Both the position numbers and the translations under genes were made by a program. From IMG/VR virus record IMGVR_UViG_3300008120_000124: a DNA stretch of 64,000 nt. One strand, 5' to 3'. Under the pieces are notes generated by a model. The model ran no database searches. It was given only the letters and a program-made list of their open reading frames with translations, and was not told the origin of the DNA. Origin of the DNA: an uncultured virus (IMG/VR IMGVR_UViG_3300008120_000124) (Duplodnaviria > Heunggongvirae > Uroviricota > Caudoviricetes). This document shows positions 2,563 through 58,658 of this stretch, in pieces. Position 1 is the first letter of the stretch, and each line of letters starts with the position of its first letter.

Positions 2563-2745
2563 ATGGCACAGAAAAACACTCCAGTCTTTCCACAAGAGAC
2601 TGTTCAACAAGTAAATTCACAAAGAGAGTTTCATATTGCTTCTATTAAAGCACTTACAGAACTACTTAAGACTACTGATTCTTCTTCTCTTAAAGAACAA
2701 ACAGAAAAAGCACTCTCAAAACTTATTGAAGTATATGTTAACTAA
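2563..2745 (+). CDS. hypothetical protein
   Basis: 60 aa ORF tightly packed between its neighbours. Confidence 0.6.
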   Translation: MAQKNTPVFPQETVQQVNSQREFHIASIKALTELLKTTDSSSLKEQTEKALSKLIEVYVN

Positions 2746-3115
2746 TATTAATCTTATAGGTAATAGAGTTCTTGTACTCCTAGATAAGGAACCAGAGCAC
2801 ACTACTACTTCATCGGGGTTATTGATACCTCAGTTTACTTATGAGGAGACAGATGGAGGTAAGCTTAAAGCTAAAGCTTCTGATCTTACTTATCTTTCAC
2901 AAGGTACTGTAGTTTCTATATCCCCCCACGCTAAAGATCTCCTTTCTAAGGAGAATACTGATTTACAAGTAGGTGATAGGGTATATGTATCTACTCACGC
3001 TGTTTCCCCCCAGTATCAATTCTTTATTGATCGTTCAACAAAGATCCTTTCTTTTGATGGATATATATCTATACCTACTTCACTTATAGAAGCTATTATT
3101 AAAGATGAAAAATAA
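2735..3115 (+). CDS. groES: GroES-like co-chaperonin
   Basis: From ATG 2735: LIGNRVLV...TTSSGLLIP (mobile loop)...GTVVSISP...LQVGDRV, the Cpn10 pattern. Confidence 0.75.
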   Translation: MLTNINLIGNRVLVLLDKEPEHTTTSSGLLIPQFTYEETDGGKLKAKASDLTYLSQGTVVSISPHAKDLLSKENTDLQVGDRVYVSTHAVSPQYQFFIDRSTKILSFDGYISIPTSLIEAIIKDEK

Positions 3116-3464
3116 ACCAAAAGCTAATAAAACTCCTAAAGTTGTAGAAAACACTTCTTCTTTAGAAGAATCACCAATATATTTAGAGATGAACCAAACT
3201 GCACTAGAACTAGAAAACACTAAAGCAGAACTTGAGTCTGCTAAACAACAGACCAATCAAATGCAAGCAATTGCTCAAGAAGCACTTAATAGATTGGTAA
3301 CTATTGAAACTCGTCTTGCTCCTCAAGCATTACGTAAGCCGAATCTAATGACTATACTTTTCCATTGGAAAGAGCTAATGCTTACTATTGCAGAAATTGT
3401 TTCCCTTATTAAGGAGTTTAAAGATCTGATACAGAAGCAACCTCAAAATGACGCTCCTAAATAG
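3105..3464 (+). CDS. coiled-coil hypothetical protein
   Basis: 119 aa, heptad-like central region; overlaps both neighbours. Confidence 0.6.
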   Translation: MKNKPKANKTPKVVENTSSLEESPIYLEMNQTALELENTKAELESAKQQTNQMQAIAQEALNRLVTIETRLAPQALRKPNLMTILFHWKELMLTIAEIVSLIKEFKDLIQKQPQNDAPK

Positions 3465-3945
3465 TTTTGATATACATAAGGATTTTTTCTCTACTAATCC
3501 TGAGTTGTCAGTTCTATTAAAAGATTTTTTAGAAATACCCTCTGAACATTTATGAGCAATATTTTTATACGCGCACCCTGATTCTAAGTTCTTTGAGCTT
3601 TCCCCTAAAGAACGCCAAGAACTTATTTATAAGGATTACCTTATCTCTGATCCTTCCTTCTCATGGGAGTCCTACTCTGATCTTCTTTCTTTTGTAGAAG
3701 ATAATCTACTTACTAAAGTAGAAAGGGCTCTTATGAGATGGGAAAAGACGCTACATGAAAGAGATGAGTTTATTTCCTCTATACCTTATTCTTTAGATAC
3801 CTTTGAAGCTAAAGATAAGATGGTTGCAAATACCCCCAAATTATGGGATCAGTATGAATCTATTTTAGAGCGGTTAGCTAAAGAACGTCAAACTAAAACT
3901 CATGGAGATTTAGAGGAATCTGCTTCTGAAAAAGGAGAAATTTAG
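3448..3945 (+). CDS. conserved crAss-like protein, possibly terminase small subunit; 1 in-frame TGA (3553)
   Basis: ATG 3448 is in frame with track ORF 3733-3945. The only interruption is TGA 3553-3555 in EHL*AIFLYAHPDSKF. 165 aa with readthrough. Confidence 0.7.
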
Positions 3946-3967
3946 TGGTGTTCTTCACCACTATTAT

Positions 3968-4213
3968 GGGGGCGCCTGGTATTGATTTGGTATATAGTGC
4001 TTACATTAACTGTGATGAAGGTCGTCTACGCCTTAAGTAGATAACAATAAATGACAACTCTTACGCAGATGCACTTATAGTGCCGGAGAACTCTACCAGC
4101 TACGTTTCTCAAGAGGTAGAAATTTTAGAATTAGTTTACGCTTAAATTAAATCACACTTAAAGGTTAATGAAAAGTAATACTGAAGACGCGGGTTCGACT
4201 CCCGCCGCCTCCA
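3968..4213 (+). ncRNA. ssrA: phage-encoded tmRNA (compact, about 246 nt)
   Basis: Acceptor stem GGGGGCG 3968-3974/CGCCTCC 4206-4212 with G3:U70 and discriminator A. T-arm GCGGG-TTCGACT-CCCGC 4189-4205. pk1 pseudoknot AAGG/CCTT plus TCTAC/GTAGA (4018-4041). Tag frame 4053-4145 follows ATAAAT. Confidence 0.9.
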
Positions 4214-4881
4214 CAAATAAAGTTGAACTTATAGGTTACTATGGTTCAGATGAAGTAATAGCTCTTTCTGCATGGACGTCTACATCTAGAGATTTAACCC
4301 CAGAAAAGAAAGAACGTATCCCCGCTTTAATTAAACAGCTTTGGGATGCACACCCAGTTCCACATGGATCTCCGTTTGAAAAGGGAATTGTTCATTTCCT
4401 AGTTACTACGGATATTGCTTCACATATACATTTATTAAAGCATAGAATATCCTCTATTAATGCTGAGTCAGCTAGATATAAAGAACTTAAAGAAGATAAA
4501 TACTATCTACCAGAAGATTGGAAGGGTATTAAGTCTAAAAGATTCCATAAAGATCTTCTCTCTATATTAGAGGAGTATACAAAACTTGGGAATGTTTATT
4601 ATCATGAAGCTGTTAAAGAACTTACACCAGTTCTTGGTAGAAAAAGAGCTAAAGAAACAGCTAGATTTTTTAAGACTTATAATTCTCAGATAACAGCGGA
4701 TGTTATGTTTAATATGCGGTCATTTCATAATTTTATTAATCAAAGGATGGATGATCACGCTCAAAAAGAGATAAGAGAAATTGCTAGAGAAATGCTCTCC
4801 ATAGTCTATAATTTAGAAGGTGCTCCTTTTAAAGCTACATTAGAAGCATGGGGATTTGATAAACCTGAACTTATTGGGTAG
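4168..4881 (+). CDS. thyX: flavin-dependent thymidylate synthase ThyX
   Basis: HGSPFE and HLLKHRISSINAESARY (ThyX motif), NMRSFHNFINQRMDDHAQKEIR. The start ATG lies inside the tmRNA. Confidence 0.9.
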   Translation: MKSNTEDAGSTPAASTNKVELIGYYGSDEVIALSAWTSTSRDLTPEKKERIPALIKQLWDAHPVPHGSPFEKGIVHFLVTTDIASHIHLLKHRISSINAESARYKELKEDKYYLPEDWKGIKSKRFHKDLLSILEEYTKLGNVYYHEAVKELTPVLGRKRAKETARFFKTYNSQITADVMFNMRSFHNFINQRMDDHAQKEIREIAREMLSIVYNLEGAPFKATLEAWGFDKPELIG

Positions 4882-4895
4882 TCGTGGTATAGAAG

Positions 4896-5035
4896 CCTTC
4901 ATTTTAACTTTTGCCAGAAAAGAGAAGGATACAGGGTCCCGCCCTAGTATTTAAATTACAGCGGGAAAAACTGATAACAGTCGTTTATGGACCCGGTTCC
5001 CTAGTCGTAAGATTCAGGGAACTTCCATAACGGCT
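4896..5035 (+). ncRNA. structured spacer / tRNA leader RNA (unassigned)
   Basis: Hairpins CCTTC..GAAGG and TCCCGC..GCGGGA, then a long stem AGTCGTTTATGGA..TCCATAACGGCT enclosing GTTCCCT-AGTC-GTAA-GATT-C-AGGGAAC (GNRA loop). Confidence 0.45.
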
Positions 5036-5039
5036 TTAC

Positions 5040-5132
5040 GGGGGCTACAGTAGCTGGGTACTAACCGATCTTCAAAATCGCTGAACACGCCCTTCCAAAA
5101 GGCGTGCGGGGGTTCGATTCCCTCAGCCCTTG
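5040..5132 (+). tRNA. opal (UGA) suppressor tRNA, anticodon UCA, long variable arm
   Basis: Acceptor GGGGGCT 5040-5046/AGCCCTT 5125-5131, discriminator G5132. D stem AGTA/TACT. Anticodon arm CGAT-CTTCAAA-ATCG (TCA at 5072-5074). Variable arm CACGCC/GGCGTG. T arm GGGGG-TTCGATT-CCCTC. Confidence 0.9.
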
Positions 5133-5147
5133 CTAAAACTTAATTTT

Positions 5148-5447
5148 ATGTGGATAAAAACTTCACTATTAATGGCTGAAGGGGATTCTTTAGAAGAGAA
5201 TTCCTTTTTTGAAATACCAATATGGATAAATACGTCTCAAATAGTTACTATTAGAAAGATTGTAAAAGACACAGACGTTCCAGATGACTTAAAAAGATAT
5301 TCTGCTATCTCTACTACGGATGGTAATACTTACTACCTTAAAGTACAAGCAGAAAATCTACTTAAAATGATCAATCCTGATAACGATGGTGGTATAAGTA
5401 TAGAAAATGATACGCCACCAAAACCAACCTTAGACACAAGTATATAA
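5148..5447 (+). CDS. hypothetical protein
   Basis: ATG 5148 just after the tRNA (the track's TTG start lies within the tRNA); 99 aa. Confidence 0.65.
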   Translation: MWIKTSLLMAEGDSLEENSFFEIPIWINTSQIVTIRKIVKDTDVPDDLKRYSAISTTDGNTYYLKVQAENLLKMINPDNDGGISIENDTPPKPTLDTSI

Positions 5448-5584
5448 TGGAAAATAAATTTACACTTACTGAACTCATAGACTTTGGTAATTATCTTCTT
5501 TCTGAGTATAGAATGAACATGGTTACACAAAAAGACGCTGTGCACGACGCAGATATTGCAAATTGGCTCTACAGAGTTAACTAA
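5447..5584 (+). CDS. small hypothetical protein (45 aa)
   Basis: TAATG coupling at 5445-5449; MENKFTLTELIDFGNYLLSEYR...HDADIANWLYRVN; fills the gap exactly. Confidence 0.65.
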   Translation: MENKFTLTELIDFGNYLLSEYRMNMVTQKDAVHDADIANWLYRVN

Positions 5585-5591
5585 ACTCAAA

Positions 5592-5822
5592 ATGAAGATC
5601 AAAGTATCAATTAAATATGAGCTTTGGCCATATGAGCAAGAGCTTTCTGTAACAATACCACAGGATGAATTCCATAAAATGGATACTTATGTTGATTCTA
5701 TGACATCTAATTTAAAGATGAACCTACTTACTCACGTTAAGAATCATCATCCTAATACTTGGTATAAAAATTCACCCCTTAATTTGGACAAATTAAAAGA
5801 TTTACAAAATGACGCCAACTAA
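5592..5822 (+). CDS. hypothetical protein
   Basis: ATG 5592, 7 nt after the previous stop; overlaps the groEL start. Confidence 0.6.
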   Translation: MKIKVSIKYELWPYEQELSVTIPQDEFHKMDTYVDSMTSNLKMNLLTHVKNHHPNTWYKNSPLNLDKLKDLQNDAN

Positions 5823-7419
5823 ACAAGTTACGTTTAAAGAAGAAACAAGAGAAAAATTACTTAAAGGTGTAGAAAAAATTTCTAATGCTGTTGGGTCTAC
5901 ATTAGGACCAATGGGTAAGAATGTAATAATCGAAACTCCCTATGGAGCAACTACTGTAACTAAAGATGGTGTAACAGTTGCTAAACATATAGCTTTAGAA
6001 GACCCAGTTGAGAACTTAGCTGTGGATATTCTTAAGCAAGCTGCTGCTAAAACTGCTTCTACTGCTGGAGATGGCACTACTACCTCAACTGTTATTGCTT
6101 CGGCTTTAGTACAAGAGGCATTTAAACTTATTTCTGTTGGTTATCAGCCCATAGAAATTAAAAGAGTCTTTGAGACTTTAAAACACCAGACTATTGTACA
6201 GCTTAATAAGTTATCTACTGGAGAACTTAAGCCACAAGATATTTATGATGTGGCTACTATATCTGCTAATAATGATTCTGACATTGGTGTCCTCATTCTT
6301 TCTGCTTATGAGTATGTTGGTACAGATGGTTTAGTGTCTATGGGAGAATCTAAGACAGGTAATACTTATCTTGAGGCTGTACCTGGAGTATCTATATCTA
6401 AAGGTTATGCTTCCCCTTATTTTATTACAGATTCCGCTAAAGGAGAAGCAGTTTTAGAAAACCCCCTTATATTTATTACTGATAATAAGCTTAGACACAC
6501 AGATGAAGTAATCCCAATTTTGGAGTATGCAGCATCTCGTAGAAAGCCGCTCCTTATTATTGCTGATGCTATTGATGGTCAAGCTCTACAGCTCCTTATA
6601 ATTAATAAGTTACAACAAAGAATATCCGTAGTTGCTGTAGAAGCTCCTTCTTATGGAGAAAATAGAGCGGAACTGCTTCAAGATCTTGCAGCTATAACCT
6701 CTTCTAATATATTTACAACAACAGATGCCTCTAGAGCAACCCTTGATGTTTCCCCTATTAATTTTGGTTCTGCAGAAAAGGTAGTTATCTCTAAAGATAA
6801 GACTGTATTTATTAATCCAGATAAAAACGCTGATAAGGTTGACCAAAGAGTTCAGTTAATAAACTCTAAAATGCTCCAAGATTCTGATAATCCTTATCTT
6901 TTACAACAGTATCAGAAAAGACTTGCGGATCTTAAAGCTAAAGTAGCAATTATTAATGTTGGGGCTGCTACAGAAACAGAATTAAAAGAGAAAAAAGATA
7001 GGGTAGAAGATGCTCTTAAAGCTATTGCAGCAACAATCGTTGAAGGTTATCTCCCAGGAGGTGGTACTGCACTTCTTTATGCTTCATCTAAGATAACTAC
7101 TGATGATCCTATAACAAAAGCATACGTTAATGCTATAAAAGAGCCACTTAGACGTATAGTTTTTAATGCGGGTAAGAGTCCAGATATGGTACTTGCTACA
7201 TTAGAGGCATCTACGGACACTAGTTTTGGATTCGATGCTAAAAGCTTTGAGTATAAAGATTTAAAAGCAGCTGGTATTATTGATCCAACTATGGTAGTTA
7301 CACAAGCAGTTAAGAATGCTGTTTCTGCAGCTAATATGATAATTCTTTCTGACACTGCGATGGTTAATGTAGATAGGACGCCCCCATATACTCCACCATC
7401 ACCAGACTATGTTCAATAA
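5809..7419 (+). CDS. groEL: chaperonin GroEL
   Basis: 536 aa; TLGPMGKNV, TKDGVTVA, AGDGTTT, GAATETELKEKKDRVEDAL, PGGG, GIIDP. Confidence 0.97.
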   Translation: MTPTKQVTFKEETREKLLKGVEKISNAVGSTLGPMGKNVIIETPYGATTVTKDGVTVAKHIALEDPVENLAVDILKQAAAKTASTAGDGTTTSTVIASALVQEAFKLISVGYQPIEIKRVFETLKHQTIVQLNKLSTGELKPQDIYDVATISANNDSDIGVLILSAYEYVGTDGLVSMGESKTGNTYLEAVPGVSISKGYASPYFITDSAKGEAVLENPLIFITDNKLRHTDEVIPILEYAASRRKPLLIIADAIDGQALQLLIINKLQQRISVVAVEAPSYGENRAELLQDLAAITSSNIFTTTDASRATLDVSPINFGSAEKVVISKDKTVFINPDKNADKVDQRVQLINSKMLQDSDNPYLLQQYQKRLADLKAKVAIINVGAATETELKEKKDRVEDALKAIAATIVEGYLPGGGTALLYASSKITTDDPITKAYVNAIKEPLRRIVFNAGKSPDMVLATLEASTDTSFGFDAKSFEYKDLKAAGIIDPTMVVTQAVKNAVSAANMIILSDTAMVNVDRTPPYTPPSPDYVQ

Positions 7420-9649
7420 CAGAGACTTTATAATAAAAGAAGTCCCTGAGTATCATCCTCTATCAATAGATTATAAAACATTTTGACGCGAACAGAAACG
7501 GCGTTGTATCGAAGGTTACTGGGCTGGCGGGACATTTGTTCCCCCAGCCCTTTACTATTATATAAACTTCCATACAATAAGGCTAAATAAATCTATTCAC
7601 TCATCTGTAAAGTCTTTTGGTAGACCTTGACTCAGGGATGTAGAATATAACTTTTTTAATTATTACACTGAAGCCCGTGGATTCTCTGGCTTTAAAGACG
7701 ATGATGAATACTCCTCTCATAGAATACTTTTAACAGATATAGATGATGATACCTTATTAAAGTATTATCCAAATACTATATCCTCCACAGGTTCTCGTAA
7801 AACTTACATTCCCGCGCGAAAGGCTTTATTCCAAACCTATGATTATCCCTTAGGTGCTCCTTTGTTTGAGAATAATCTACAGAATTTTATGCTACTTGGA
7901 TCTCGAGAGTCTGGTAAGTCTTATCAGGTATCAGGACTTATAGCACACAACTATCTTTTTGATGGAGCTACTTATTATAATGAAGAAAGTATAAAGTACC
8001 CCTCCCCAGCTGAGATATTAGTTGGTGCTGAAAAGTCAGATAAATCAGCAGATCTACTTAAAAAAACAAGGGATGCATTTGATTGGCTTCCCGGTAAAAT
8101 ATCTACTTTTGACAGGACCTATCCAGCTCCTTTTTCTAAAAGATTCAGGGGGTCTTGGGATGTTAATAAAGAGATAGTTGCTGAGTATAAAAAACGTGAG
8201 AATGGAGCTTGGATAATTGCGGGATCTAAGTCATCTATTAAGCATAGATCTTTTTCTGCTAACCCATTTGCAGCTCAAGGTACTCGACCTCTTCTTCTAG
8301 TATTAGAAGAGATAGGTATGTTCTCCAACTTAAAACAGGTTTACACAAATACGGTGGATAACCTTCGTAACGGTCTTAGGAAAACAGGTATGCTTATGAT
8401 GATTGGTACTGGTGGTGATATGGAGAAAGGAACTATTGATGCTGCTGAGATGTTTTATGAACCTAATAGATATGATATCTTAACGTTTGAAGATATATGG
8501 GAGCATAGGGGTCAAATAGGATACTTTCTCCCAGCTTATCAAGTTCTTAATGAGTATAAAGATGAGAACTGAGTTACAAATGAAGAGGCAGCTAAAAAAG
8601 CTCTCTTAACAGTTCGTAAACAAAAGGCTGGAGATTCAGGCGGTTCCGAAGCTTTAAATAAAGAGCTTCAATATCGTCCAATAGTTCCTTCAGAAATGTT
8701 CTTAACCAAGACTGCTAATATATTCCCAACAGCAGAACTTAGAAGACGTCTTTCAGAAGTGCAATCTCAAAAGATGGAGGATTACTCTAATAAAGTGACT
8801 CTGTTTTTTGATCCCGCCGCTAAAGTTTATAATGGAGTTAATTACGAAATAAATACTAAACTAACTGCTATAACAAGATTTCCTTACGAAGGAGATGATG
8901 TAGAAGGAGCGGTTATGATATACGAATTCCCAAAACTAGTAGATGATCATGTTCCAGAAGGAGCTTATATAATAGGTTGTGACCCTTATAAAGATGATAC
9001 TTCAACTGGTGGATCTTTAGCTGCCGTCTATGTTATGAAGACTAACAAGTATCCTTCCACTGTTGGATATTCAGAAATAGTTGCTACATATATAGGTAGA
9101 CCTTACCTAGGTAAAAATCAAGTTAATGAGACGTTATACAAACTCTCCTTGTTTTATGGTAATGCTAAAATATACTTTGAGAATAACGTAGGTAACGTAA
9201 AAGATTACTTTGATAAAATACGCCGTCTAGATCTTTTGGCTAGACAACCAGTTACTATTTTTAATAAAAAAGCTTCTTATGATACAGGGCCCCAGATTAT
9301 TTATGGTTACCCCTTATCAAACGATAAAGTTAAATGAGAAGCACTTCAATATGTTCGTTCTTTCCTCTTAGAAGAAAGAGGAGATAATAGACGCAATTTA
9401 GATGTAATACCCGATATAGGATTATTACAAGAATTAATCTCTTATAACCTCGATGGCAACTTTGATAGGGTATCTTCGTTAATAGGATGTGTTTTAGGTC
9501 TAGAAGAAATATCCAATCTTAGTCGCAAAAAATCCATAACCGATAAGGAGCTTTCTCAATTTGAGAAGGACTTTGATAGGTTATTTGTAAACAACACCAG
9601 ACTATTCAATGTACAACTTCCCAAAACAACGCCTTCCTTATTCACGTAA
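7409..9649 (+). CDS. terL: terminase large subunit; 4 in-frame TGA (7484, 7628, 8570, 9335)
   Basis: One frame from ATG 7409 to TAA 9647-9649 (746 aa) with only TGA interruptions. Walker A GSRESGKS, Walker B LLVLEE, nuclease IIGCDPY...GNFDRVS. Confidence 0.93.
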
Positions 9650-12029
9650 AGCTTCTAGTAACTTTAAGTGGGCAAAGGATGTGGTAGATTCTATACTGTC
9701 ATATTCTCCTCAAGATGAAGGAGTTGTGAATAAGTATAACTCTTCCTACCAAAGAAAATTATCAAATTACCAACTTTACAATAATCAACTAAACCAGTTT
9801 GATTTTGAAAGAGAGTGTAACCCATTAGGACTTGATGTAGGTCAATTTAAGGATGCTATACAACCCTACAATAAGACTTATAATAAAATACAAATACTTC
9901 TTTCTGATGAATCTAAAAGGCCCTTTAACTTTAGGACAATATTAGTAAACGCAGAAGGAGTTCGTTCAAAGCTCTCGCAAAGAGACGCAATGCTTCGTAA
10001 TTATATTGATTCTGTAATAAAACAAACAATCTCTTCTCTCTCAGATATTTATTCCCCAGAGCTCTTAGAAGTTCATCAAGAGCATATTATTAATCCAAAA
10101 GATCTTGATAAATATATGAGGTATTCTTATCGTGAAAGAAGGGAGATACTTGCTCAAAATATTCTTCAGTATCTTTATCGTAAAATGGATATAAAAGATA
10201 TTAAGACCGATGCTTTTAAGCATGCCCTTATATCTGGAGAAGAAGTAGTTTATGTAGGTACTAATGGAGATGAACCACATATTGAAGTTATTAATCCACT
10301 AGGATTTTTCTATCATAAGAGTGGAGAAACAAAGTGGATTCAAAAATCTCTTTACGCCGGTTATACTACATTTATGACTCAAGCAGAGGTACTAGATCGT
10401 TATGGAAAGTATTTATCTCAAGAAGATATTGAGAAGATAGATACTGCTTTTGGTGATACAAATGCACTTAGAGAATTCTCAATGGAGCAAAACGCCAAGT
10501 ATGGTAATCTTCCTTATGATCCAGTCTATCACGATACTTATACAACTACCCAAGGATCTTATGGGAAAAGCTCACACACGGACGTGCGCGTATCACACGT
10601 TGAATGGGTATCCCAAAGAAAAGTAGGATTTCTTACTATGTTTAATGAGTATGGTGAAGAAGAAACTACTATTGTTTCTGAGGATTTCGAAATCCCAACT
10701 GAGTTTACCAAAGAAATAGTTCGTGGTAGATATGGTGTAAAGACTGAGTATTATATTTGGAAATTAGAAGATTCCGTATATAAACTTAATTGGGATTATA
10801 TTCCAGAAGTATGGACTGCTACTAAAATAGGTCACGATATTTACACTATGGTTGGTCCTAAAGAAGTTCAGTTTAGATCTATGGACGATCCTTATGATGT
10901 TTCCTTAGGATATCATGGCATAGTTTATAATGCTACAAATGCTGAGTCTGTTTCCTTGATGGATAGGATGAAACCTTTTCAGTATCTTTACTTTATAGTA
11001 ATGCATAAGCTTAAAAAGCTCATTGCTCAAGATCAAGGTAAGGTATTCCACTTTGATGTATCTATGGTAGATCCAAAAATTGGTATAGAGAAAACACTAT
11101 ATTACCTTAAGGAAATGAACCTTGATATATTCAACCCCCTTGCAAATGCGGATGAACCAGGACAAGCTCAAAGAGGTAAGATAGCTTCAGAAACAGATAT
11201 GTCAAATATGCAGTATATAATGAATTACATTAATATACTTGCAGCTCTTGATAACCAAATCTCTGAAGTAGCCGGTGTATCTAGACAAAGAGAAGGACAA
11301 ACTACTCCAACTGAAGCTGTATCAAATGCTCAGAGTAACATACAAATGTCAGCTCTTATTACTGAGATATACTTTCAAAGCCACGCTAAGATGTGGGAAA
11401 AAGCATTAACTGCTCTTATCCATGTTGCTCAGCACGTTTGGAAAGGTAAGTCAGTTATTAAGCAGTACGTGTTAGATGATATGTCTCTTTCTACACTTGA
11501 ACTTTCTCCAGAAGATGTTTCTAATTGCGACCTAGGTGTTTTCCTTACAGATTCTGGCAAAGAATACGAAATGTTCTCAGCCCTTAAAAGTATATCTGAT
11601 GGCCTACTTAATACAAATCGCGCTACATTCTCTGATCTTATTACTCTTTACGAAGCGAATTCTTCTGCCGAACTTAAAGCAGCTATCAGGCAGTCTGAAG
11701 AAGAAACCTTTAAACGGGAACAACAATCTCAACAGCAGCAAATAGAAGCAGCCCAACAGCAGCAACAAGCTCAACAACAGTTTGATATAATGATGCAAGA
11801 TAGGCTCTTTGAACATAAAGAACGTTTAGCTCAGATAGAAGTATTTAAATTCCAAAAGGATATTGATATAGATAATAACGGTATTCCTGATCCACTCGAG
11901 ATACAGAAATTTATTTCGGATCAAAATCTACGTGAAAGAGAGCTTGATTTAGCTGAAAAGAAATTTGAAAAAGAATCAGATCTAAAAGAAAAAGACCTTA
12001 AAATAAAAGCTAGAAAATCATCTAAATAG
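9609..12029 (+). CDS. portal protein (crAss-like)
   Basis: 806 aa directly after terL; FPKQRL N-terminus, GVSRQREGQ, Gln-rich C-terminus and DIDNNGIPD. Confidence 0.88.
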   Translation: MYNFPKQRLPYSRKASSNFKWAKDVVDSILSYSPQDEGVVNKYNSSYQRKLSNYQLYNNQLNQFDFERECNPLGLDVGQFKDAIQPYNKTYNKIQILLSDESKRPFNFRTILVNAEGVRSKLSQRDAMLRNYIDSVIKQTISSLSDIYSPELLEVHQEHIINPKDLDKYMRYSYRERREILAQNILQYLYRKMDIKDIKTDAFKHALISGEEVVYVGTNGDEPHIEVINPLGFFYHKSGETKWIQKSLYAGYTTFMTQAEVLDRYGKYLSQEDIEKIDTAFGDTNALREFSMEQNAKYGNLPYDPVYHDTYTTTQGSYGKSSHTDVRVSHVEWVSQRKVGFLTMFNEYGEEETTIVSEDFEIPTEFTKEIVRGRYGVKTEYYIWKLEDSVYKLNWDYIPEVWTATKIGHDIYTMVGPKEVQFRSMDDPYDVSLGYHGIVYNATNAESVSLMDRMKPFQYLYFIVMHKLKKLIAQDQGKVFHFDVSMVDPKIGIEKTLYYLKEMNLDIFNPLANADEPGQAQRGKIASETDMSNMQYIMNYINILAALDNQISEVAGVSRQREGQTTPTEAVSNAQSNIQMSALITEIYFQSHAKMWEKALTALIHVAQHVWKGKSVIKQYVLDDMSLSTLELSPEDVSNCDLGVFLTDSGKEYEMFSALKSISDGLLNTNRATFSDLITLYEANSSAELKAAIRQSEEETFKREQQSQQQQIEAAQQQQQAQQQFDIMMQDRLFEHKERLAQIEVFKFQKDIDIDNNGIPDPLEIQKFISDQNLRERELDLAEKKFEKESDLKEKDLKIKARKSSK

Positions 12030-13149: not shown

Positions 13150-14649
13150 ATGGCTAATCCTCAATCTTCCTTAATTATTAAACATTGGGATTCCTTTGGA
13201 GGCAACTTCATTGATTCCGATTACTTGGCAGCCGCTTACGAAACTGGTAAGCCGCACTACTTGCCCGGAGCACTTATGAAGATCTACTCTTCTGGCTCAC
13301 AGTTTTTTAAAGTAAAACCTTTCCTTAATCTCGTTGGTATGGGTACTAACGGTGGTACTGAAGTAGAAACAGAGATCGTTCGCTGGCGTCTTCAGGGTGC
13401 AGAATACAAGTGCGCTCGCGTTATCGAAAACGTAGAATCTTCTTCTAACCTTACCCCAGGTATCAACAACACTCAGTTCCGTGTTAAACTTGATCTGGAT
13501 TACTACGCTTACCCAGATATCCTTGTTCCTGAAGACAATGACTACAATGTACAAGTTGTAGACAAAGTAAGCGATGGTACTGGTACTATCTACACTCTTA
13601 AACTGATCACCGACGATCCAACCAAATATCTTGATGCTCAATACCTGAACCCAGGTCGTGAGTGGTGCAAAGTATCTACTGCAGTTCCTTCTGAAATGAA
13701 CCAGTGGTTTGGTACTCAGCAGTACCCAGCAATCTTTGAACTTGAGTCTCAGATTGGTGCTTTCGGTCAAAAAATTGATGTTACCGATAAAGCATGGCGC
13801 CAGCAAGGTCGTCTTGGTTTTGAATTCATGTCCACTGACTACAATGGCCGTTCTTCCACTGTAAACAAGTTCCTGCCTTACGCAGAAGCTATGATGGTTG
13901 ATGAGCTGTACAAATCCATGGAATGGGCACTTGTTTATGGTGAGAAATCAACTATGACAGGTCCTGATGGATACTGGCAGAAGACAGGCGCTGGTATTCG
14001 CCAGCAGCTGAAAGACTCTTGGGTTCAGTATGTTAACGGTCCTTTGACTGTAAACCTCCTCCAAGACTTCCTGCTCAACATCTTCTTCGGTCGTACAGAT
14101 GAAGCAAATCGCGGTATCACTCTTATGACTGGTCAGCTTGGATCACTTCTTTTCCACAATGCCCTCACTGCTGTTGCTAACGGTTTCTTGACTGTAGATT
14201 CTAACTACATCCGTAGCGAATCCAATCCTAATTCCTCAACTCCAGGTCTGGCATTTGGTGCGCAGTTCGTTCGTTACACTGGTCCTCTGGGAATAGACAT
14301 CCGTCTTATCCACAACCCACTTTACGACGATCTTCGCTACTGCAAGAAGATGCACCCACAGTACCCCAACATTCCAATTGATTCTGCTCGTATGACTTTC
14401 CTCAACATCGAAGGTCGTGGTGTAGAAACAGCTAAAGGTCTTGGTAAGAATATTGAGCTGCTCAAAGTTAAAGACACTTTCCGTTACTTCTACGTTCCTG
14501 GATCAGTTACCCCAATGGGTCCGATCACTAACAAAGGTATGGCTGTAACTGCTAAAGCTGGTTACACTGTAGCCATCGAAGGTACAATGGGCGCAATCAT
14601 CCGCGATGTTACTTCTTGCGGCGAGCTTATCACAGATTACGATAACTAA
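13150..14649 (+). CDS. major capsid protein (crAss-like)
   Basis: 499 aa; position after portal and scaffold; TGAGIRQQL motif; strongly C-ending, high-expression codon usage. Confidence 0.88.
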   Translation: MANPQSSLIIKHWDSFGGNFIDSDYLAAAYETGKPHYLPGALMKIYSSGSQFFKVKPFLNLVGMGTNGGTEVETEIVRWRLQGAEYKCARVIENVESSSNLTPGINNTQFRVKLDLDYYAYPDILVPEDNDYNVQVVDKVSDGTGTIYTLKLITDDPTKYLDAQYLNPGREWCKVSTAVPSEMNQWFGTQQYPAIFELESQIGAFGQKIDVTDKAWRQQGRLGFEFMSTDYNGRSSTVNKFLPYAEAMMVDELYKSMEWALVYGEKSTMTGPDGYWQKTGAGIRQQLKDSWVQYVNGPLTVNLLQDFLLNIFFGRTDEANRGITLMTGQLGSLLFHNALTAVANGFLTVDSNYIRSESNPNSSTPGLAFGAQFVRYTGPLGIDIRLIHNPLYDDLRYCKKMHPQYPNIPIDSARMTFLNIEGRGVETAKGLGKNIELLKVKDTFRYFYVPGSVTPMGPITNKGMAVTAKAGYTVAIEGTMGAIIRDVTSCGELITDYDN

Positions 14650-26900: not shown

Positions 26901-27359
26901 ATGAATATAACTTTAAACAGTACTTGTTCACAAATAACAGTAACCTCAGCTATACTTTTAAATACAAATGTAGCCAATACATTAAAAGTTATTTATAAAG
27001 GAACTGAGCACACTGTTACCGTACCAACTAACATATCTACCTTTAACATACTTCCTACGCACGTGGGCATGACAGGTACTTTTACAGATGGTGTTTATAC
27101 TATATTTTTTAGGAACACACTATTAGGCGGTGCTGTTAAAGAAGATAGAGGTTGTGCGGTAAGTCTTTGTAGCACTAAGTGCTCAGACGATATGATTTCA
27201 TGGTACACATCTAAGAACTTAGATAAAGTACTTACTTACGAAGCTCTGAAGGTAGGACAAGATTGCGTTAGTTGCAACTGCTCTACCTTGGAAACACTCT
27301 TTAACGACCTACAAGAAAATGACACCAACACCTGCTCAAATTGCTGCTGCACAGTGTAA
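26901..27359 (+). CDS. Cys-rich structural protein
   Basis: 152 aa, many Cys in the C-terminal half. Confidence 0.65.
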   Translation: MNITLNSTCSQITVTSAILLNTNVANTLKVIYKGTEHTVTVPTNISTFNILPTHVGMTGTFTDGVYTIFFRNTLLGGAVKEDRGCAVSLCSTKCSDDMISWYTSKNLDKVLTYEALKVGQDCVSCNCSTLETLFNDLQENDTNTCSNCCCTV

Positions 27360-28707
27360 CTTTGTAAATGAGCTGGTAGCCTATAACAACTGTAAAAAAT
27401 ATAATATAGATTGCTGTTCAACTAAAGTAGAAGAAGCGTTTTATCTTAAGAAACTTGCTGAATCTGGATGCGATCTTGATTATGATCTTATCTGTCAGTT
27501 AGATCATCTTAATGTTACTATAGTAGATTGTACTCAAGATCCTACTTGTGAAGAGATGGCAGATTGGAGTATAAAGCAAATAAATGTTGGAGGAGATTAT
27601 TCAGTAATTTTAGAAAACGAATATGACTACTCTAATAAATTTGTTTTTAGCACTAACAACGATTCTACTTTTTTAAGTTCTACCGCCAATGTTGTTATAT
27701 CAAATGGATATGGCGAAGTTTCGGATAGTTACTCGATAGCTGGTGGTTGCAAATTAGTTAATGGTGTTTCTGTATGCTCGGATATTTACAAAACAGAAGT
27801 TTATTGTATACTGCAAAGTGCACCATTATCCAACTTCTATAGTGCTACAAGTTCTTGGGCAATACAATCTATTAGGCTTTGGAATGTTGGAACTGCTACT
27901 GGAACTGCTTTTGGTGGACCGCTTCAATACCAAGATGTAGATATTTCTCCAAGTAACATATGACCAGCCACTAAACCTGGTAGTACAGCTGCTCTTCCTG
28001 CAGACTTACTTTTAAGTAGTCCAAATTTAGCTAGCGCTTTAAAAAAGCAAATAGAGAACTTTGTTTGGGAAACTGATAAAGTTTCTCCAGGATTTAATAA
28101 CCAATTAAATATAAAACTTGATGTATCTGTTGTAGGAGATGTTTTGTACATTAAAACTGTATTTAAGCATAACCCAACTTCAAGTTGGTGGGGATTAAGA
28201 TCTGTAGCTTGGGCACAAAATAGTCCTTACGATTTAAGTAGTGTAAGGTTAGTTTTCCCCGGAGATTACTATAAAGATCTTTGGCACACAACTTACATGA
28301 GACATTCTTCTACAAAAGTGTATGATTCTCATGCGTTTACTAATGACTGTGCTCAAACATCTAATGTTGTAGTAGAAGGTTACATAACTCCTTATGTTAA
28401 TTATTGGGAAACTGACTTGAATAAAATTACTCTTCAGCAACCAACCCAACAATACAGCTCTAAAGTTGATGATGTTTTTACCACAAATGAAAATCTACTT
28501 ACAGAGAATATATTATCTTGTTACAAAACCACTTTAATACCCACAGTTGATAGCACTTATGCTAACTCTGTTAGCTGGTATAGTCCTTCTGGAACTATAG
28601 TTGGTTCTGGATCTGTTACGCTAACAAACCCTGTACAAGGAACATATACAGCAAAACTCACATTAGTTAATACTGGATGTGTTTTAGAAAAAACTATTGA
28701 AATATAA
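27319..28707 (+). CDS. Cys-rich structural protein; 1 in-frame TGA (27961)
   Basis: Track ORFs 27319-27963 and 28144-28707 are in the same frame; the intervening codons are open. 462 aa; C-terminal Ig-like GTYTAKLTLVNTGC. Confidence 0.8.
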
Positions 28708-30360: not shown

Positions 30361-31042
30361 ATCAGTCTTGGCTAGTTTGGCAATGATACTCGATGAAAAG
30401 TATTGAGATGAAGCAACAATGCTTGAGCATATCGCTAAAGGATTTTTACAAATGAATTTAGAGAATAAGTTTGAGCAGAAGACCGCTAAACTTGAAGTTG
30501 AAGAACATAAAACCACACTACCAAACGACTTAAAATATATAACGCAAATAGTAGTAGAAATAGATAATAAATACTACCCAATGCGTGCTACAACAAACCC
30601 CTACCATAATGGTGTTTGTGATCTTAAATTGCTAGTTCCTTGTCCAACTTGTAAATACGAGTATTCTATATCCCCTTCTGGAGTAGTTACTACTAACATG
30701 GGCACAGGAACTATTGTTATTTCATATCTAGCTAATCCAGTAGATGAGAACGGGGATCTATTAATTCCTGATGATGAGACTTTAAAAGAAGCTCTTACAC
30801 ACTATGTTCTTTATAAATACTGGATGACTAAGTACATGATGAAGGAAGAAGGCTCTGAAAGTAGAATGCAATTTCACTTAAAGATGTGGTCTACATTATC
30901 TAAGAAGTCTATGAATCTTAATCTTCCCACAATAGATGGTCTTGAGAATATAAAGAATATCAATAACCATTTAGTTCCAAGAAGTAATAGATACTCACAG
31001 CTTTTCCAAACATTAAACAATCAAGAAAATGTCGGATTCTAA
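30341..31042 (+). CDS. tail ring/tubular protein; 1 in-frame TGA (30404)
   Basis: ATG 30341, MKTISIKSVL...DEKY*DEATMLE, in frame with track ORF 30419; YLANPVDENGDLLIPD. Confidence 0.75.
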
Positions 31043-34000
31043 TACATTTACAAAAGGTATAAATACGGATCTTCATCCAAAGTTTCAAGAAGACGGAACT
31101 TACCGATTCGCCTTAAATGCTGTATTAGAAACTAAAGATGGAGAACTTCCTTCCATATCAAACGAAGCTGGAAATTCTGCTTGCAGTATAAACTTTCCAG
31201 TAAACAAAAAAGTAATTGGACACGCTTTAACTGAAACTGATGAGGTTATAGTGTTCTTATACGATCCTGCAGGACAACATGAAATAGGAAAGTATTCAGG
31301 TTCTAACTGTCAATACACCAGTATAGTAATTGCTTCTTGCTTAAACTTTTCTGATAAGTATCCTATAAACGCTTTATATAAAGTAAGAAACGGATGTGAT
31401 GGTTATATATACTTTACAGATAACTACAATGATTATCGAGTAATGAATATAACTGATGTATTCCAGTATTTAGGAGATGGGGCTTTAATTTGCCCAAAGA
31501 TAGAATTTTCTAGAGATTACACAATTCCTAACATTACCTTAGACACCATAGAATCTAATAGTGCTGGAGCTTTAGAAGTAGGTGTGTATTACTTTGCAGT
31601 TAGGTTTTTAGATAAGTATAATAACTCCACTAACTGGGCAAATGTTACTAGACCTGTAGTTATAGGAAACGGTACTTATTCTTACTTAGATGACGATAGT
31701 ACTGTTAATATGTACGATGGTGGTTCAAACGATATTAACTCTGATTATTACGTTAAGCCTCAGCAAAAGCAAATAAAGTTTACAGTAAGTTCTGCTGATA
31801 ATATATTTGATTATTATCAAATAGCAGTTATTAAAAGAACAACAGATGAAGGTAATATCTCAACAGTAGATGTTCTTCAACCACAGCCTTGGAATGGTTC
31901 TACAGAAAGTTTTGTTTACACTGGTAATCCAAATGATGTTGTTTATCAATCAGCGTTAGATGATATACTAAATGACAAAATAAAGATTAAAAAGGTATTA
32001 GCTCATACATTTGAAACTAATAGACTCTTTTTAGCAAATACTTCTGGAGATTATAGAGATTACTCAAAGTATCAAAGATACGCTTCTAAAATAAAAACAG
32101 AGTTTTATAAACCTCTTTCAGGATATGACGAAGTAGATAATAAAACTAGGCAGGGTGTTTATTACTTTGACGAAGGCTCGTTAATGGAAGATGAAGTTTA
32201 TTCTTTAGGAATAGTATATGTTTTTAGAGATGGAACCGAGTCTCCAGTATTTCATATTCCCGGTAGGCCCGCTAATATAACTATTACTGGTTCTAATCCT
32301 TTAATAGGAACGAACGGTGTTACTACAGATGGAGCTAGCTGGGACACTGGAACAACAACTGTTTATGGTGATAATATCTCTACCAACCTTAGATGGAAAC
32401 AAATATCTACTGCAGCAGCACAACCACATGCAGGTTTCTCTTATATTAGAGGTTATATGGGTTATCATGAAACTCAAACTACTTATCCTTACGTAGAAAC
32501 TTGCGATAACAATGCAGATGGATACTGGGGAAGAGATTATTGGAATAACTTAATAGAGCCCTACAATACTGCAATAAGACATCATAGGATGCCTGGAGCT
32601 GAAATAAGAGACTCTTTAAACAATGTTACTAATTTTAAAGTAGGGCTTTTGTTTTCAAATGTAAGTTACCCAGCTAATGAAAATATAGTTGGGCACTACT
32701 TTGTTTACGGAGATAGAACATTTGAGAGAACAGTTTTGGCTAAAGGAGCTTTTGTTCCTCTTGAAGTTCAAGAAGGAGAAGGTGTTACTAGAAGGTACGA
32801 ATTTACTGTTTATCCAAATAATTATAATGGAAATTATAATGGGGGATCTTTAGCTCCTGCTGATTTTAATTGAACTATAAATAATGGTATAGGTATTAGA
32901 GCTAATGAGTTTGCTTTTATTTCTTCAGAAGGTGTGTTTAAAGAAAAGTCTTTTGATGGAGCTTACGTTAAGTTTGAGAAAATCTATTTAGATAAAAACT
33001 GGGTAAGTGCAAACTCTGATATTTACAGCGATGCTACTAAGTTAAAAGAGTTTAACTCTAAAGAAAGTTATGATGTAAATGTCCACAGTCGAAGAACTTA
33101 TAGGTACTTTAATAAATACAATCTTCCAACTGTTAGTGGTATAAACCATAATATTCAGAATAATTTATTTATTAATAAAACTTATCAAGGCGCTGTAGAA
33201 GGAAACTCTGCTTACGAACATGTAAAAGATTGGACGTTTGTTAATAATAGTGTTAGCATACCTCTTCATTTATTAAAGTTACAAAGCGGTACTGAAGCAC
33301 TTGCCCCACTAGGAGATTGGAGAAACAAAGCTTTCTTTGGAAGTATAAGACAGTTTAAAGATGTATTCTCAAACTTATATACCATTCAGTATAAAAAGCT
33401 TCAGAACAAAACTCTTTACGCCACAAATTTAAATACTAGTTTTATTGTACTAGGAGGAGACACCTCAGTATCCAGACTTTCATTAATGGAATCCTCTTTT
33501 AAGCAAACTGGAATTGTTTCTGATACCACACCAACTACTTTAGATGCTTATAGTGTTTTCTTTTCTTTCCCAACTCAAGATACATACTTTAATCCAGAAT
33601 TTAGAAGTAGCGCTAAAGATCAGAAGCTAGATTACTTTAAAAATAAGAATGCATCTACTACCGCTGATAACTTAGAGGATATGTTTTCTTACGTTTTAAG
33701 AAAGTTATATTCTCCAGACGTAAAAGATGTAATTATAAATCCAGAGATATATAATTATAATAATTCTTTTTCATTCTTAGATGGACTAGAAATAAAGTAC
33801 CCAATAGCGTTTAATTATAAGTTTTGTAATCTTTGTATAGAAGATCATCCATACAGAATATGGTATTCTCAAAAAGACGATAACACTTCTTTAGAAGATA
33901 AAAGTAGGATAATACTTCCTAATAATTATACAGACGAGTTAGGAGGTAATTCAGGACCTGTAACAGATTTGTTTGTTAGTTTTAATAAACTATACGCAAC

Positions 34001-35282
34001 TACTCCAAAGTCTATTTTCTATATACCGACTAGACCTCAAAATATAGAGACTGATGTTAATACTATTTATCTTGGAACTGGAGAAGTCTTGGGAGTTCCT
34101 CCACAGGAAATGAAAAACTCAATGAACGGATTTGGTGGTCAACAGCATTGGTCTTCTAGATTACTTACCGAATACGGTGCATTTTATATGGATTCTTTTT
34201 CAGGAAGTCCTATTATGCTGGGAGGATCAATAGAAGATATATCAATGTCTGGTATGAGAAATTTCTTCCAAGAAAATGGGGAGTTTAATTTACCTAAGCA
34301 GTTTAAGTTATTAACAAACCAAGAATATCCATTTATATCTCATGTGTCTCCAGTTGGATTTGGATATAAAAGTGTTTACGATCCTAGGTACAAAAGATTA
34401 ATTCTTACTAAGAAAGATCATAAAATAAAAGCTAACTGGATTTCTAAGTTTCTTTATTACCCAACTACAACTGATAATCCCGGATCTGTTTCTGTTGCAA
34501 ACGATAGACTTTGGTTTAATAACCATTCATTTTACTATAAAGATAAAACAGGAACTAACAATAAAGTATCATTAGAGGATTCTTATTTCTTTGAGAATAA
34601 ATCTTTTACATTATCTTACTATTTCTTAAGTAAACATTGGGTATCTTTCCATTCTTACATACCTACGTATTCTTTTTCAGATTCTAATTCATTTTACTCT
34701 CAAAAAGATTATACTAATATCTATAAGCATGGAGAGTTAAATTACCAAAAGTATTACGATATTAAATACCCGCACATTGTTGATGTAATATTAACAACGT
34801 CGCCTCCAATTATAAAAACAGCAGGAGCAGTTGTACTTTGCGCATACAGTTCATCTGTAGATGTAAACTCAAATACTTTCCAAACAGAAACACCTTATAG
34901 TAAAGTAATATTTTATAATTCCTCTCAATCATCTGGAGTTCAGTCTTTAGTTGCGCCATCTCCTTTTCAACTAGATGTTTCTAATGGAGTAGCTTTTACT
35001 AAACTTACAGATAGACAGTGAAGAATAAATAATATTAGAGATTTAACTGTATCTAATAACCAACCTATTTGGGCATCTGATTGGAATTCTATTCAAAGCT
35101 CACCATTTTCTTATATAGATAAAATACCCAACTTAGCAAATATAAATTATAGTAAATCTTTCTTTAATTCTAGCAGATTAAAAGACTATTATTTAGGAGG
35201 AAGATTTTTCTTTGAGCCATCTACCGATGTTAAAGTTTCTTTAGATTTGCTCATGACTACTACCCAAAATAAACAACGATAA
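31029..35282 (+). CDS. tail muzzle/stabilisation protein; 2 in-frame TGA (32871, 35019)
   Basis: One frame of 1417 aa to TAA 35280-35282; FTKGINTD..P...YRFALNA N-terminus; TDRQ*RINNIRDL. Confidence 0.85.
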
Positions 35283-41367: not shown

Positions 41368-41382
41368 TAAATAAAATTATAT

Positions 41383-57600: not shown

Positions 57601-58658
57601 TGTTTATGCTTGTAGATACTCCTGGAAGTGGTATGTCCTACTATGTAAAAATAGGGGATAAAACTCCTAGTGCTTATAATTTTTCTCTTTTCGATTTAGA
57701 TAAATCGTTTGATTTAAAAGCCTTGTTTAATCTTGGAGATTATAAACTTGTTAATAGTAGCATTATTCAAGGGGGTAAAATAAGATTAAAAAAGAAAAAA
57801 CTATCTTTACAAAAGTTTGATCGTGTGTTAGCGATTGATTTATATTCTGTAGATCCAACAACAGCCACTGCTTATTACGTTAAAGATATACAAGAATCTG
57901 AGGGAGTAACTACTTATATTTTAGGAGCAACTGAACAAAGACCTATGTACTCCACTCAATTAATTGAAAGGGTTAGAAAAGGTTTTAAAAAGTTTCTTAA
58001 CACCGATGTTAACGCTACCGTTGTGGTTGATACGGTATCAGAATATTTTAGAAAAGAAAGAACAAGTAAAGATTTAGAAGCATCTACTATTGTTATTTCT
58101 CCTAAAGAAGAACGTTCTATAAAGTTACCATTTTTTAACATACCAAAAGATTTAACTGAGCAGCAACAACAAGATATACTAGATGAAACTGCCGTGATAT
58201 TAAATGAAAAAGTAAAAGATGGAGCAACAATAGTTATAACTAAAGATGTTTTTGATTCGGTTAGACGGTATAAAATATTAAATAGAGGTCTTGTAGATTT
58301 ATTTTATAATAAATTGAATTATATAGACAGAATACTTCCGCCAACTAATGTTCAACAAAAATCGCCAGAGCTAACTATAGCAATTAAAGAAAACGAATTA
58401 GACGTTGAAATGGTTGGAAATATTAGTTTAACTAAAGATGCAAGTGGTTTAGTTTATACCCCTGCACAAGGACCGCTTGCTAAAAAGAAAGAGGGAGATA
58501 TACTTTATTTTGGTAATGGGCTGTATGCTTTTGTATCGGCTAATACTGGAACTAATTTAACTATGTTTACTTTTGATAAAACCTTTTTACAAGAATTAGA
58601 AAAAGGAATGAAAACAGCAGACTTTATAGAAGTCTATAATCAAAAAAATAAGTGCTAA
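54669..58658 (+). CDS. virion RNA polymerase C-terminal part with a DUF4326-like insert; 2 in-frame TGA (54852, 55281)
   Basis: Track ORFs 54669, 55032 and 55335 form one frame (1329 aa). GIALTGIVAN; LINLAIDNVK (AIDNVK at 55368-55385); HFGNPF...YKDWL insert near 57170-57270. Confidence 0.8.

Follow-up and report, generated by a model that had tools for sequence, protein, structure and literature searches.

The DNA analysed here, called the window in the following, is a whole stretch of 64,000 nucleotides (nt) from an uncultured virus of the Caudoviricetes (IMG/VR record IMGVR_UViG_3300008120_000124). Positions are those of the window unless another locus is named, and all the features described lie on the plus strand. 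The window hosts a gene for a transfer-messenger RNA (tmRNA). An earlier inspection of the letters alone, denominated here the sequence-only reading, had assigned positions 3968-4213 to a minimal phage tmRNA carrying an unusually long, non-canonical tag. ARAGORN places a tmRNA at 3968-4214 and assigns to it the tag DNSYADALIVPENSTSYVSQEVEILELVYA*, encoded at positions 86-178 of the gene, corresponding to window positions 4053-4145. The Rfam tmRNA model RF00023 matches 3968-4216 (62.9 bits, cut-off 47, E 3.6e-22), and is the sole gathering-level Rfam match within the 64 kb. Both searches thus agree on the identity of the element, and the coordinates, frame, length and tag first proposed proved right. 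The Rfam alignment spans the model end to end (1-374), large deletions being found at the pseudoknots PK2-PK4. A two-piece, circularly permuted tmRNA was ruled out, because the gene is called as standard by ARAGORN and is collinear with the model in the Rfam alignment. The only other RNA gene reported by ARAGORN in the window is a tRNA(UCA) at 5040-5133.

The mature body of the RNA corresponds to 3968-4213, and the gene as matched by Rfam to 3968-4216. The tRNA-like domain (TLD) is of the alanine type, as had been proposed. Direct reading identifies a 7-bp acceptor stem, in which GGGGGCG (3968-3974) pairs with CGCCUCC (4206-4212), followed by the discriminator base A4213, so that 3' strand and discriminator together fill 4206-4213. 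The pair G3970:U4210 is the equivalent of G3:U70, the alanine identity pair. The T-arm GCGGG-UUCGACU-CCCGC (4189-4205), found both by direct reading and by Rfam, has a loop of the GGUUCGANUCC type. The bases following A4213 are CAA; the CCA end is therefore not encoded, and must be added. When the RNA is folded with the tag blocked, the 5' strand 3986-4016 and the 3' strand 4151-4185 form helix H2, which consists of 26 bp in four segments.

PK1, also claimed in the sequence-only reading, can be drawn from the sequence as a predicted H-type knot at 4018-4042, in which AAGG (4018-4021) pairs with CCUU (4031-4034), and GUCUAC (4024-4029) with GUAGAU (4037-4042). The topology recurs with other letters in two of the homologous RNAs described below, L217 (AACU/AGUU, CGUC/GACG) and L220. 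A single-stranded A/U-rich stretch ahead of the resume codon includes U4048-A4049, located at positions -5/-4 and counterpart of U85-A86 of E. coli. The tag reading frame (4053-4145) counts 30 codons, from the resume codon GAC (4053-4055) to the stop UAA (4143-4145), and encodes the peptide (A)DNSYADALIVPENSTSYVSQEVEILELVYA. Two hairpins lie in the frame. The first, GCAC-UUAUA-GUGC (4071-4083), is kept in L217 and L218, and is changed on both sides to GCGC...GCGC in L216. The second, UCUACC...GGUAGA (4092-4120), folds and is invariant in the DNSY group; hairpins made of other letters occupy its site in L280 (ACAGAAG/CUUCUGU) and L277 (ACAGAG/CUCUGU).

The interval from tag stop to T-arm, estimated in the sequence-only reading at about 40 nt, measures 43 nt (4146-4188), and leaves no room for PK2-PK4, as had been argued. 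Thirty-five of these residues (4151-4185) make the 3' strand of H2, which starts 5 nt past the stop codon, and the only sequence in between is AUUAA (4146-4150). With 5 nt available, PK2, PK3 and PK4, as well as a separate H5, are absent and not merely diverged; the RNA is a tmRNA devoid of three of its usual four pseudoknots. Their absence does not exclude membership in the class, since tmRNAs can do without PK2-PK4, and two-piece forms have a reduced set (PMC3968760). The background against which the RNA had been called unusual, bacterial tmRNAs of about 350 nt or more with tags of about 10 residues, holds in a softened form. Natural lengths range from 230 to 400 nt (PMC3968760), long tags are known in Mesoplasma (PMC9382460), and tags of 21 and 31 residues are predicted by ARAGORN in two bacterial metagenome-assembled genomes (MAGs).

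Conservation of the structure was evaluated on eight distinct aligned sequences and 20 named pairs, which include the acceptor stem, the eight H2 pairs nearest to the TLD and the T-stem. Standard pairs are found in 95.3% of the 150 cells, and changes on both sides at 13 of the 20 pairs (30 cells). None of 500 shuffles reached any of the five measures monitored. Pairing was 46-61% when partners were slid by 1-3 columns, a comparison that favours the real pairs, as the tested structure was derived from the same sequences; changes on both sides are independent of that. All seven acceptor pairs are standard in the eight RNAs. Three of them covary, as do four of the five T-stem pairs (7/12 for the two stems together), and six of the eight H2 pairs change on both sides. 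G:U at the third acceptor pair and the discriminator A73 are present in all eight aligned sequences. Among the strain variants listed, one falls within the 249 nt of the tmRNA (G4030A, at an unpaired PK1 junction), at least 7 fall in the 968 nt upstream, and at least 19 in the 665 nt (4217-4881) of the adjoining gene thyX that lie beyond the tmRNA.

Homologous RNAs were searched for at loci fetched around relatives of the window GroEL (24 loci), of the portal protein (76 loci) and of a 70-residue open reading frame (ORF) found directly upstream of the tmRNA (3733-3945; 14 loci). The loci were scanned with ARAGORN (98 + 7 loci) and Rfam (49 whole records and further loci). Most related records are fragments, and absences in them are weak evidence. 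The upstream ORF is conserved (70-83% identity in alignments) and marks the position of the tmRNA in related freshwater phages, where homologous RNAs are found after it. The largest RNA, in L150 (G004; portal 75%), is 388 nt long, scores 70.4 bits and encodes the tag DNAYEPALPVPEMSTLSVEPEVETLEYAYAYV; Rfam aligns about 165 nt following its stop codon to PK2-PK4. RNAs of 262 nt are hosted by L155 (G009; portal 66%, 76 bits, tag DNSYEPALMAPKNSTRFVPQEVELEVVSAVYA), and, in identical form, by L152 and L192 (portal 67%, 53.4 bits, tag DNSFEPALLVPKNSTRFVPQEVEIEVVSTVYA). L280 and L281 share an identical RNA of 283 nt (upstream ORF 71%, 54.6 bits, tag DNNTNDFGIGLPSFSTEAVAPSVTQEQPVYQYA). Three more RNAs score below the cut-off: L277 (upstream ORF 76%, 332 nt, 38.2 bits, aberrant T-loop, tag DNNTSDFSLELPEFFATENAPSVPQEQFEYAYA), L198 (portal 38%, 232 nt, 32.4 bits, tag GNNNMTFDDAMRFVGAEQAVKLAA) and L178 (portal 42%, 307 nt, 23.2 bits, a tag of about 42 residues ending in VHA). 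Sizes of 388, 332, 283, 262 and 247 nt place the window RNA as the shortest of a graded series, and the full-size member L150 already encodes a long tag.

The tag of the window itself is carried by copies at five loci. A tag-start pattern run on a metagenome collection retrieved 25 loci. One, L259, hosts a tmRNA with the same tag and geometry as the window; the other 24 are chance matches within unrelated frames. The same pattern detected nothing in viral contigs beyond the nine loci already known. A blastn search of window positions 3000-6000 against 50,697 phage records returned a single match, to thyX, and no tmRNA relative. Rfam did not detect a tmRNA in L274 and L278, which share the upstream ORF, nor in the whole records of the near-complete relatives G007 (99%) and G008 (89% complete). 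L274 hosts at 4859-5050 a match to group I introns (RF00028, 50.5 bits vs a cut-off of 50). ARAGORN called one of the six relatives detected by Rfam (L216-L221), and in another scan a further one (L280). As five out of six were missed, phage annotation based on ARAGORN under-reports this tmRNA family.

Other tmRNA-like sequences have been noticed at these loci. L019, a more distant phage (GroEL 38% identical), hosts a full-size tmRNA of 402 nt at 4916-5317 (Rfam 124.7 bits), in a similar place upstream of GroEL, with the tag GTNNTIAFERSNAFALAA, which has a canonical ending. L155 hosts at 4674-4780 a 107-nt tRNA-like element, which is not called by ARAGORN and scores 22.5 bits, below cut-off, with the Rfam tmRNA model. 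The element has a paired acceptor (AGAAGUG/CACUUCU) and a good T-arm, and lacks G3:U70. In L150 a second T-arm-like stretch, GUGGGUUCGAAUCCCAC, is found at 4200-4245, about 190 nt past the full-size tmRNA, with no Rfam call at E<=1.

In the eight aligned RNAs frame 0 is open for 24-42 codons. Six of the encoded peptides, the DN-type tags, are 30-33 residues long and have the pattern DN..P..ST..V..E..YA in common. Of the six corresponding RNAs, five have a closed +1 frame and five a closed +2 frame. Differences in tag length among DN-type RNAs all result from in-frame indels of 3 and 6 nt, and synonymous codon changes in the tag number 1-7 per pair. The homologous frame of 30-33 codons is hence maintained in related phages, and the claim of a 30-codon tag without LAA end is borne out. 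U-A is found at -5/-4 of the proposed resume codon in seven of the eight RNAs; in the exception, L221, the resume codon is uncertain and U-A is missing. The tmRNA frame of E. coli is set by U85 and, most strongly, by A86 (PMC2481249). The window tag contains six acidic and no basic residues and ends in ELVYA. Tags of the relatives end in EYAYA (L277), YQYA (L280), AVYA or TVYA (L216, L218), and YAYAYV (L217). Given that the RNA works at all, the long frame is very probably the one used.

Pieces of the region are present in one metatranscriptome run, available as contigs only. A 136-nt piece (3976-4111) is bordered by adapter letters on both sides; a 30-nt piece (4186-4215) is followed by adapter, ends in ...CACA and not in CCA, and covers only the part common to bacterial tmRNAs. 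RNA libraries can contain DNA, and contigs show neither ends nor expression level. The pieces therefore show no more than the presence of the region in an RNA library. RNA cover over thyX (4216-5131) is lacking, and was given no weight.

Taken together, the data indicate that the element is likely a functional, phage-encoded one-piece tmRNA, cut to a working core made of TLD, H2, a predicted PK1 and message. A profile of the partner protein SmpB (PF01668) matched none of five phage records, including the nearest one, G001 (86.9 kb, 86% complete); in the control set, matches were found in 10 of 14 genomes. The RNA would be handled by host functions. Its maturation would rely on RNase P, 3' processing and CCA addition of the host, and its charging on host AlaRS, guided by G3:U70 and A73; SmpB and EF-Tu, again of the host, would then bring it to ribosomes stalled at the ends of mRNAs. 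Translation would resume at GAC 4053, an acidic tag of 30 residues ending in -VYA would be added, and termination would occur at UAA 4143. The benefit to the phage would likely be extra rescue capacity during infection. An RNA of such build is credible in the light of published data. In E. coli tagging suffers no serious loss when PK2-PK4 are replaced, and these pseudoknots mainly aid folding and maturation; a hairpin can take the place of PK1, and the natural length range given above includes RNAs of this size (PMC3968760, which cites Nameki 2000, Wower 2004 and Tanner 2006 for the roles of the pseudoknots).

The C-terminus LAA is bound by ClpX (PMC3968760). The window tag lacks it, and its -VYA end resembles the aromatic-Ala ends of Mollicute tags; by analogy, tagged proteins would probably meet another protease, or have another half-life. 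In a bolder and rather unlikely reading, taken up again below, the 30-33-codon message may also physically replace the lost ring of PK2-PK4, which normally wraps the head of the 30S subunit. A message standing in for the ring would explain both the long frame in the 388-nt relative and the later loss of the ring.

The tRNA(UCA) gene located downstream of the tmRNA (5040-5133) encodes an opal suppressor of 94 nt, with a long variable arm of 6 bp and discriminator G, as judged from ARAGORN and folding. ARAGORN labels it tRNA-SeC, and no gathering-level Rfam report was obtained. A tRNA(UCA) is located 0.1-1.3 kb downstream of the tmRNA in five of the six DN-type lineages (window, L150, L152/L192, L280/L281, L277). 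Two builds were observed, one with a long variable arm (94-98 nt; L150, L152, L162, L184), the other of standard size (72-77 nt; L280, L277, L009). A long variable arm is a feature recognized by SerRS; the window tRNA has one, yet the TGA columns described below mostly align with Trp.

In-frame TGA codons are found in the terminase large subunit gene (7373-9649), a single frame of 758 codons interrupted at 7484, 7628, 8570 and 9335, which translation table 11 breaks into the pieces 7862-8572 and 8696-9337. At three of the corresponding columns relatives feature 33 W and 13 stops, 8 W among mixed residues, and 30 W, respectively, Trp being the commonest residue at two of these three Trp-type columns. 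TGA at 8570 aligns with a Gly kept in 58 of 60 relatives. Reading of TGA as Gly (code 25) was discarded, as only one of the four terminase codons aligns with Gly. Across relatives, Trp is the commonest residue in 8 of the 23 in-frame-stop columns, and an aromatic residue in 15. Pairs of late ORFs parted only by TGA lie at 31017-35282, 41371-54678, 27256-28707 and 54663-58658. ORFs 31029-32873 and 32934-35021 both match PHROG 15100; ORF 41383-42090 and the 4157-codon ORF 42205-54678 would make 4435 codons if read through. The in-frame TGA codons of the terminase and the TGA-parted late ORFs indicate that the phage reads TGA as sense in late genes, most likely as Trp, to judge from the alignments. 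The use of TGA as sense has been described for other crAss-like phages (PMC7886860; bioRxiv 2021.08.26.457843).

The repeated pairing of tmRNA and opal-suppressor tRNA in phages that use TGA as a sense codon points to a testable connection of stop-codon recoding with ribosome rescue. Suppressor tRNAs reportedly increase SsrA tagging (Ueda et al. 2002). The phage suppressor would send ribosomes past UGA stops and toward message ends, and so raise the need for rescue; decay of mRNA would create non-stop messages as well. The sequence-only reading had proposed that the RNA may rescue stalled ribosomes, for instance at UGA codons or after host nuclease defence, while conferring an altered fate on tagged proteins. 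These proposals are plausible, and the neighbouring suppressor and the in-frame TGA codons fit the rescue role and the UGA link. A bolder version looks rather unlikely. It takes tmRNA and suppressor as a single phage module thanks to which a genetic-code switch could be survived, the tag directing read-through products to a non-ClpXP (Lon-like) protease or marking them for a purpose of the phage. If so, with UGA read as Trp, ribosomes would overrun the UGA stops of host and early phage genes, and phage tmRNA and host SmpB would free them.

Searches of 34 ORFs against Pfam and PHROGs assign the window to a crAss-like phage. The major capsid protein of crAss type is encoded at 13150-14649 (E 1e-63); other markers are tail ring proteins 1, 2 and 3/4, the portal (9609-12029) and a split terminase. 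The closest described phages are crAss-like, with portal identity <31%, and infect Bacteroides, Flavobacterium and Cellulophaga. The same phage or its strains occur in public runs mostly labelled as freshwater metagenomes (20 rows from 13 studies, 2 of the rows being possibly the source sample). The tmRNA/tRNA block is flanked by phage genes for a GroES-like chaperonin (2636-3115) and for GroEL (5809-7419), both identified with Pfam/PHROGs; together with them it makes up a small cluster for translation and protein folding that immediately precedes the packaging genes.

The gene thyX (4168-4881) encodes a flavin-dependent thymidylate synthase (Pfam Thy1, E 9e-31, from residue 20). Its sole in-frame ATG, GTG or TTG (4168) lies inside the tmRNA, the overlap being of 49 nt. 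Homologues align starting at residues 15-17 and the Pfam domain at residue 20, i.e. right at the 3' end of the tmRNA. Either the tmRNA and thyX products compete for one transcript, or thyX uses an unusual start codon. In other relatives thyX does not adjoin the tmRNA.

A number of observations weigh against a working tmRNA with a translated tag, or against its link to recoding. Codon-position bias in the tag is modest (differences at positions 1/2/3 are, for example, 5/11/12 and 9/10/17), and non-synonymous changes exceed synonymous ones, which indicates weak selection on the peptide. The change of the first tag hairpin from GCAC/GUGC to GCGC/GCGC in L216 preserves pairing through a non-synonymous change, and part of the conservation is thus for RNA structure. 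PK1 is a prediction: its third loop in the window measures 2 nt, which is tight, and five of eight relatives have at this site only a hairpin. The T-loop of L277 is aberrant (CGCAACU) and the T-stem of L220 poorly paired; some members of the family may therefore be decaying. As the thyX frame covers the last 49 nt of the tmRNA, one transcript cannot give both products intact. The association with opal suppression is not strict, because G007 and G008 have in-frame TGA in the terminase and no tmRNA, and the complete genome G050 has tRNA(UCA) and no tmRNA. L152 hosts both tmRNA and tRNA(UCA), and has no TGA in the terminase.

Some of these facts bear on rival explanations. The RNA could be a decoy that titrates SmpB, AlaRS or EF-Tu of the host through its TLD and H2 and thereby prevents trans-translation by the host, the frame being left untranslated; such a role has been proposed for phage mini-tmRNAs devoid of a tag. 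The lack of SmpB matches in the phage records and the loss of the pseudoknot ring would suit such a function, and the TLD-only RNA of phage DS6A resembles strong tmRNA inhibitors (Hudson et al. 2014, PMC4131195). A decoy, however, needs no message, yet frame, stop, resume codon and the U-A at -5/-4 are kept in 7-8 of eight diverged relatives, with indels in frame, and this explanation is improbable.

Decidedly improbable is also the hypothesis that a captured tmRNA gene persists here as a relic in decay and is being lost, its long frame having been left after loss of the original stop. Sizes decreasing from 388 to 332, 283, 262 and 247 nt look like progressive deletion, the T-arm defects of L277 and L220 and the overlap of thyX with the 3' end point the same way, and several near-complete relatives have no tmRNA. 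Against erosion, compensatory changes keep the stems paired, and the frame is kept as well. Within the species, among the variants listed, the RNA is conserved at least as well as its coding neighbours, and the RNAs of the window and of four relatives exceed the Rfam cut-off.

A functional tmRNA could resume translation at another codon and add a short tag, which the sequence-only reading had named as an outcome adverse to its own proposal. ACA at 4054, for example, would give TTLTQMHL*, since the window has a stop in the +1 frame after eight codons, and the choice of the resume codon by ARAGORN is heuristic. Short tags in the +1 and +2 frames were looked for and rejected, as they are not conserved: the +1 frame counts 21 codons in L216 and is open throughout in L280. 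The short tag moreover would lack a G-starting resume codon and a hydrophobic-Ala end, and U-A would sit at -6/-5. Its use is very improbable. That the element is a leftover integration site, i.e. a partial ssrA used for attachment and not a gene, is barely credible: numerous mobile elements insert into ssrA and take along the 3' end of the gene, and the exact 3' 30-mer of the RNA occurs in bacterial tmRNAs of four phyla, but both TLD halves, H2, the predicted PK1 and message are present and collinear, no integrase was found among the 34 ORFs scanned with Pfam/PHROGs, the element holds a fixed internal position in several related phages, and conservation is not limited to the 3' part.

A functional tmRNA, reduced to its core, remains the preferred reading, and its place among known systems can be outlined. 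In the full-text literature searched, main texts being covered, no paper discussing a tmRNA in a crAss-like phage was found; the papers examined mention tmRNA only in methods, in reference lists or in overall annotation counts, and in no case with regard to a crAss-like phage. Nor did the literature searched include a functional test of a phage-borne tmRNA. The bacterial tmRNAs matching the 3' 30-mer, found in four genomes of four phyla, are all ordinary RNAs of 330-405 nt. They have no similarity to the window RNA beyond the T-arm, and the 30-mer, considered as a hint to the host, names none.

With the bacterial one-piece tmRNA (SsrA) the window RNA has in common an acceptor stem with G3:U70 and A73, a T-arm, a long H2, a U-A located four to five bases upstream of a resume codon that begins with G, and a tag with a C-terminus of the hydrophobic-Ala type followed by a stop; it scores above the Rfam cut-off, and a PK1 is predicted ahead of the message. 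It differs from SsrA because it lacks PK2-PK4 and a separate H5, has a 30-codon tag ending in VYA and not in LAA, and does not encode CCA; it is borne by a phage, and no SmpB match was obtained in the phage records searched. Its tag can be compared to the long tags of Mollicutes. The long ssrA tag of Mesoplasma florum ends in NYAFA and is read by mf-Lon, not by ClpXP (PMC9382460). The two are alike in length and in an aromatic-Ala C-terminus, a resemblance only; by analogy, such ends, in the window and its relatives, suggest recognition by a protease other than ClpX, and the non-LAA tag could be a new degron.

Published phage tmRNAs include those of the mycobacteriophage Bxz1 group and of Bacillus phage G, and the TLD-only DS6A form (PMC4131195); huge phages carry tmRNA and can also carry SmpB (PMC7162821). 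The window gene resembles those of the Bxz1 group, phage G and huge phages as a gene of lytic phages presumed to support or manipulate ribosome rescue (PMC4131195, PMC7162821). Other phage tmRNAs sampled differ, being 284-446 nt long in 36 of 37 cases (248 nt in one) and having mostly short tags ending in AA. These RNAs come from two arbitrary IMG/VR samples. ARAGORN found 12 tmRNAs among 117 loci selected by a 5' motif, three corresponding to the window phage and the other nine measuring 294-422 nt. Among 122 loci selected by a T-arm plus acceptor motif it found 28 tmRNAs of 248-446 nt, only one of which is <280 nt, with tags of 7-25 residues (<=16 in 24 of the 28). Like the DS6A-type mini-tmRNA, the window RNA is phage-borne and reduced and retains the TLD; unlike it, which has no message, it keeps a predicted PK1 and the context that sets the frame, together with a conserved frame of 30 codons.

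The reduction itself has parallels in two-piece tmRNAs with fewer pseudoknots, and in E. coli variants in which single strands replace PK2-PK4, which are not needed for tagging (Nameki 2000, Gaudin 2002, cited in PMC3968760). In contrast to two-piece and engineered RNAs, the window gene is unpermuted, the loss of the pseudoknots is natural and complete, and natural intermediates exist in sister phages. A natural minimal tmRNA could show what a ribosome-rescue RNA needs to work, and the natural series from 388 to 247 nt, having the same kind of tag throughout, provides a ready test of the role of PK2-PK4 and of the long message as their replacement.

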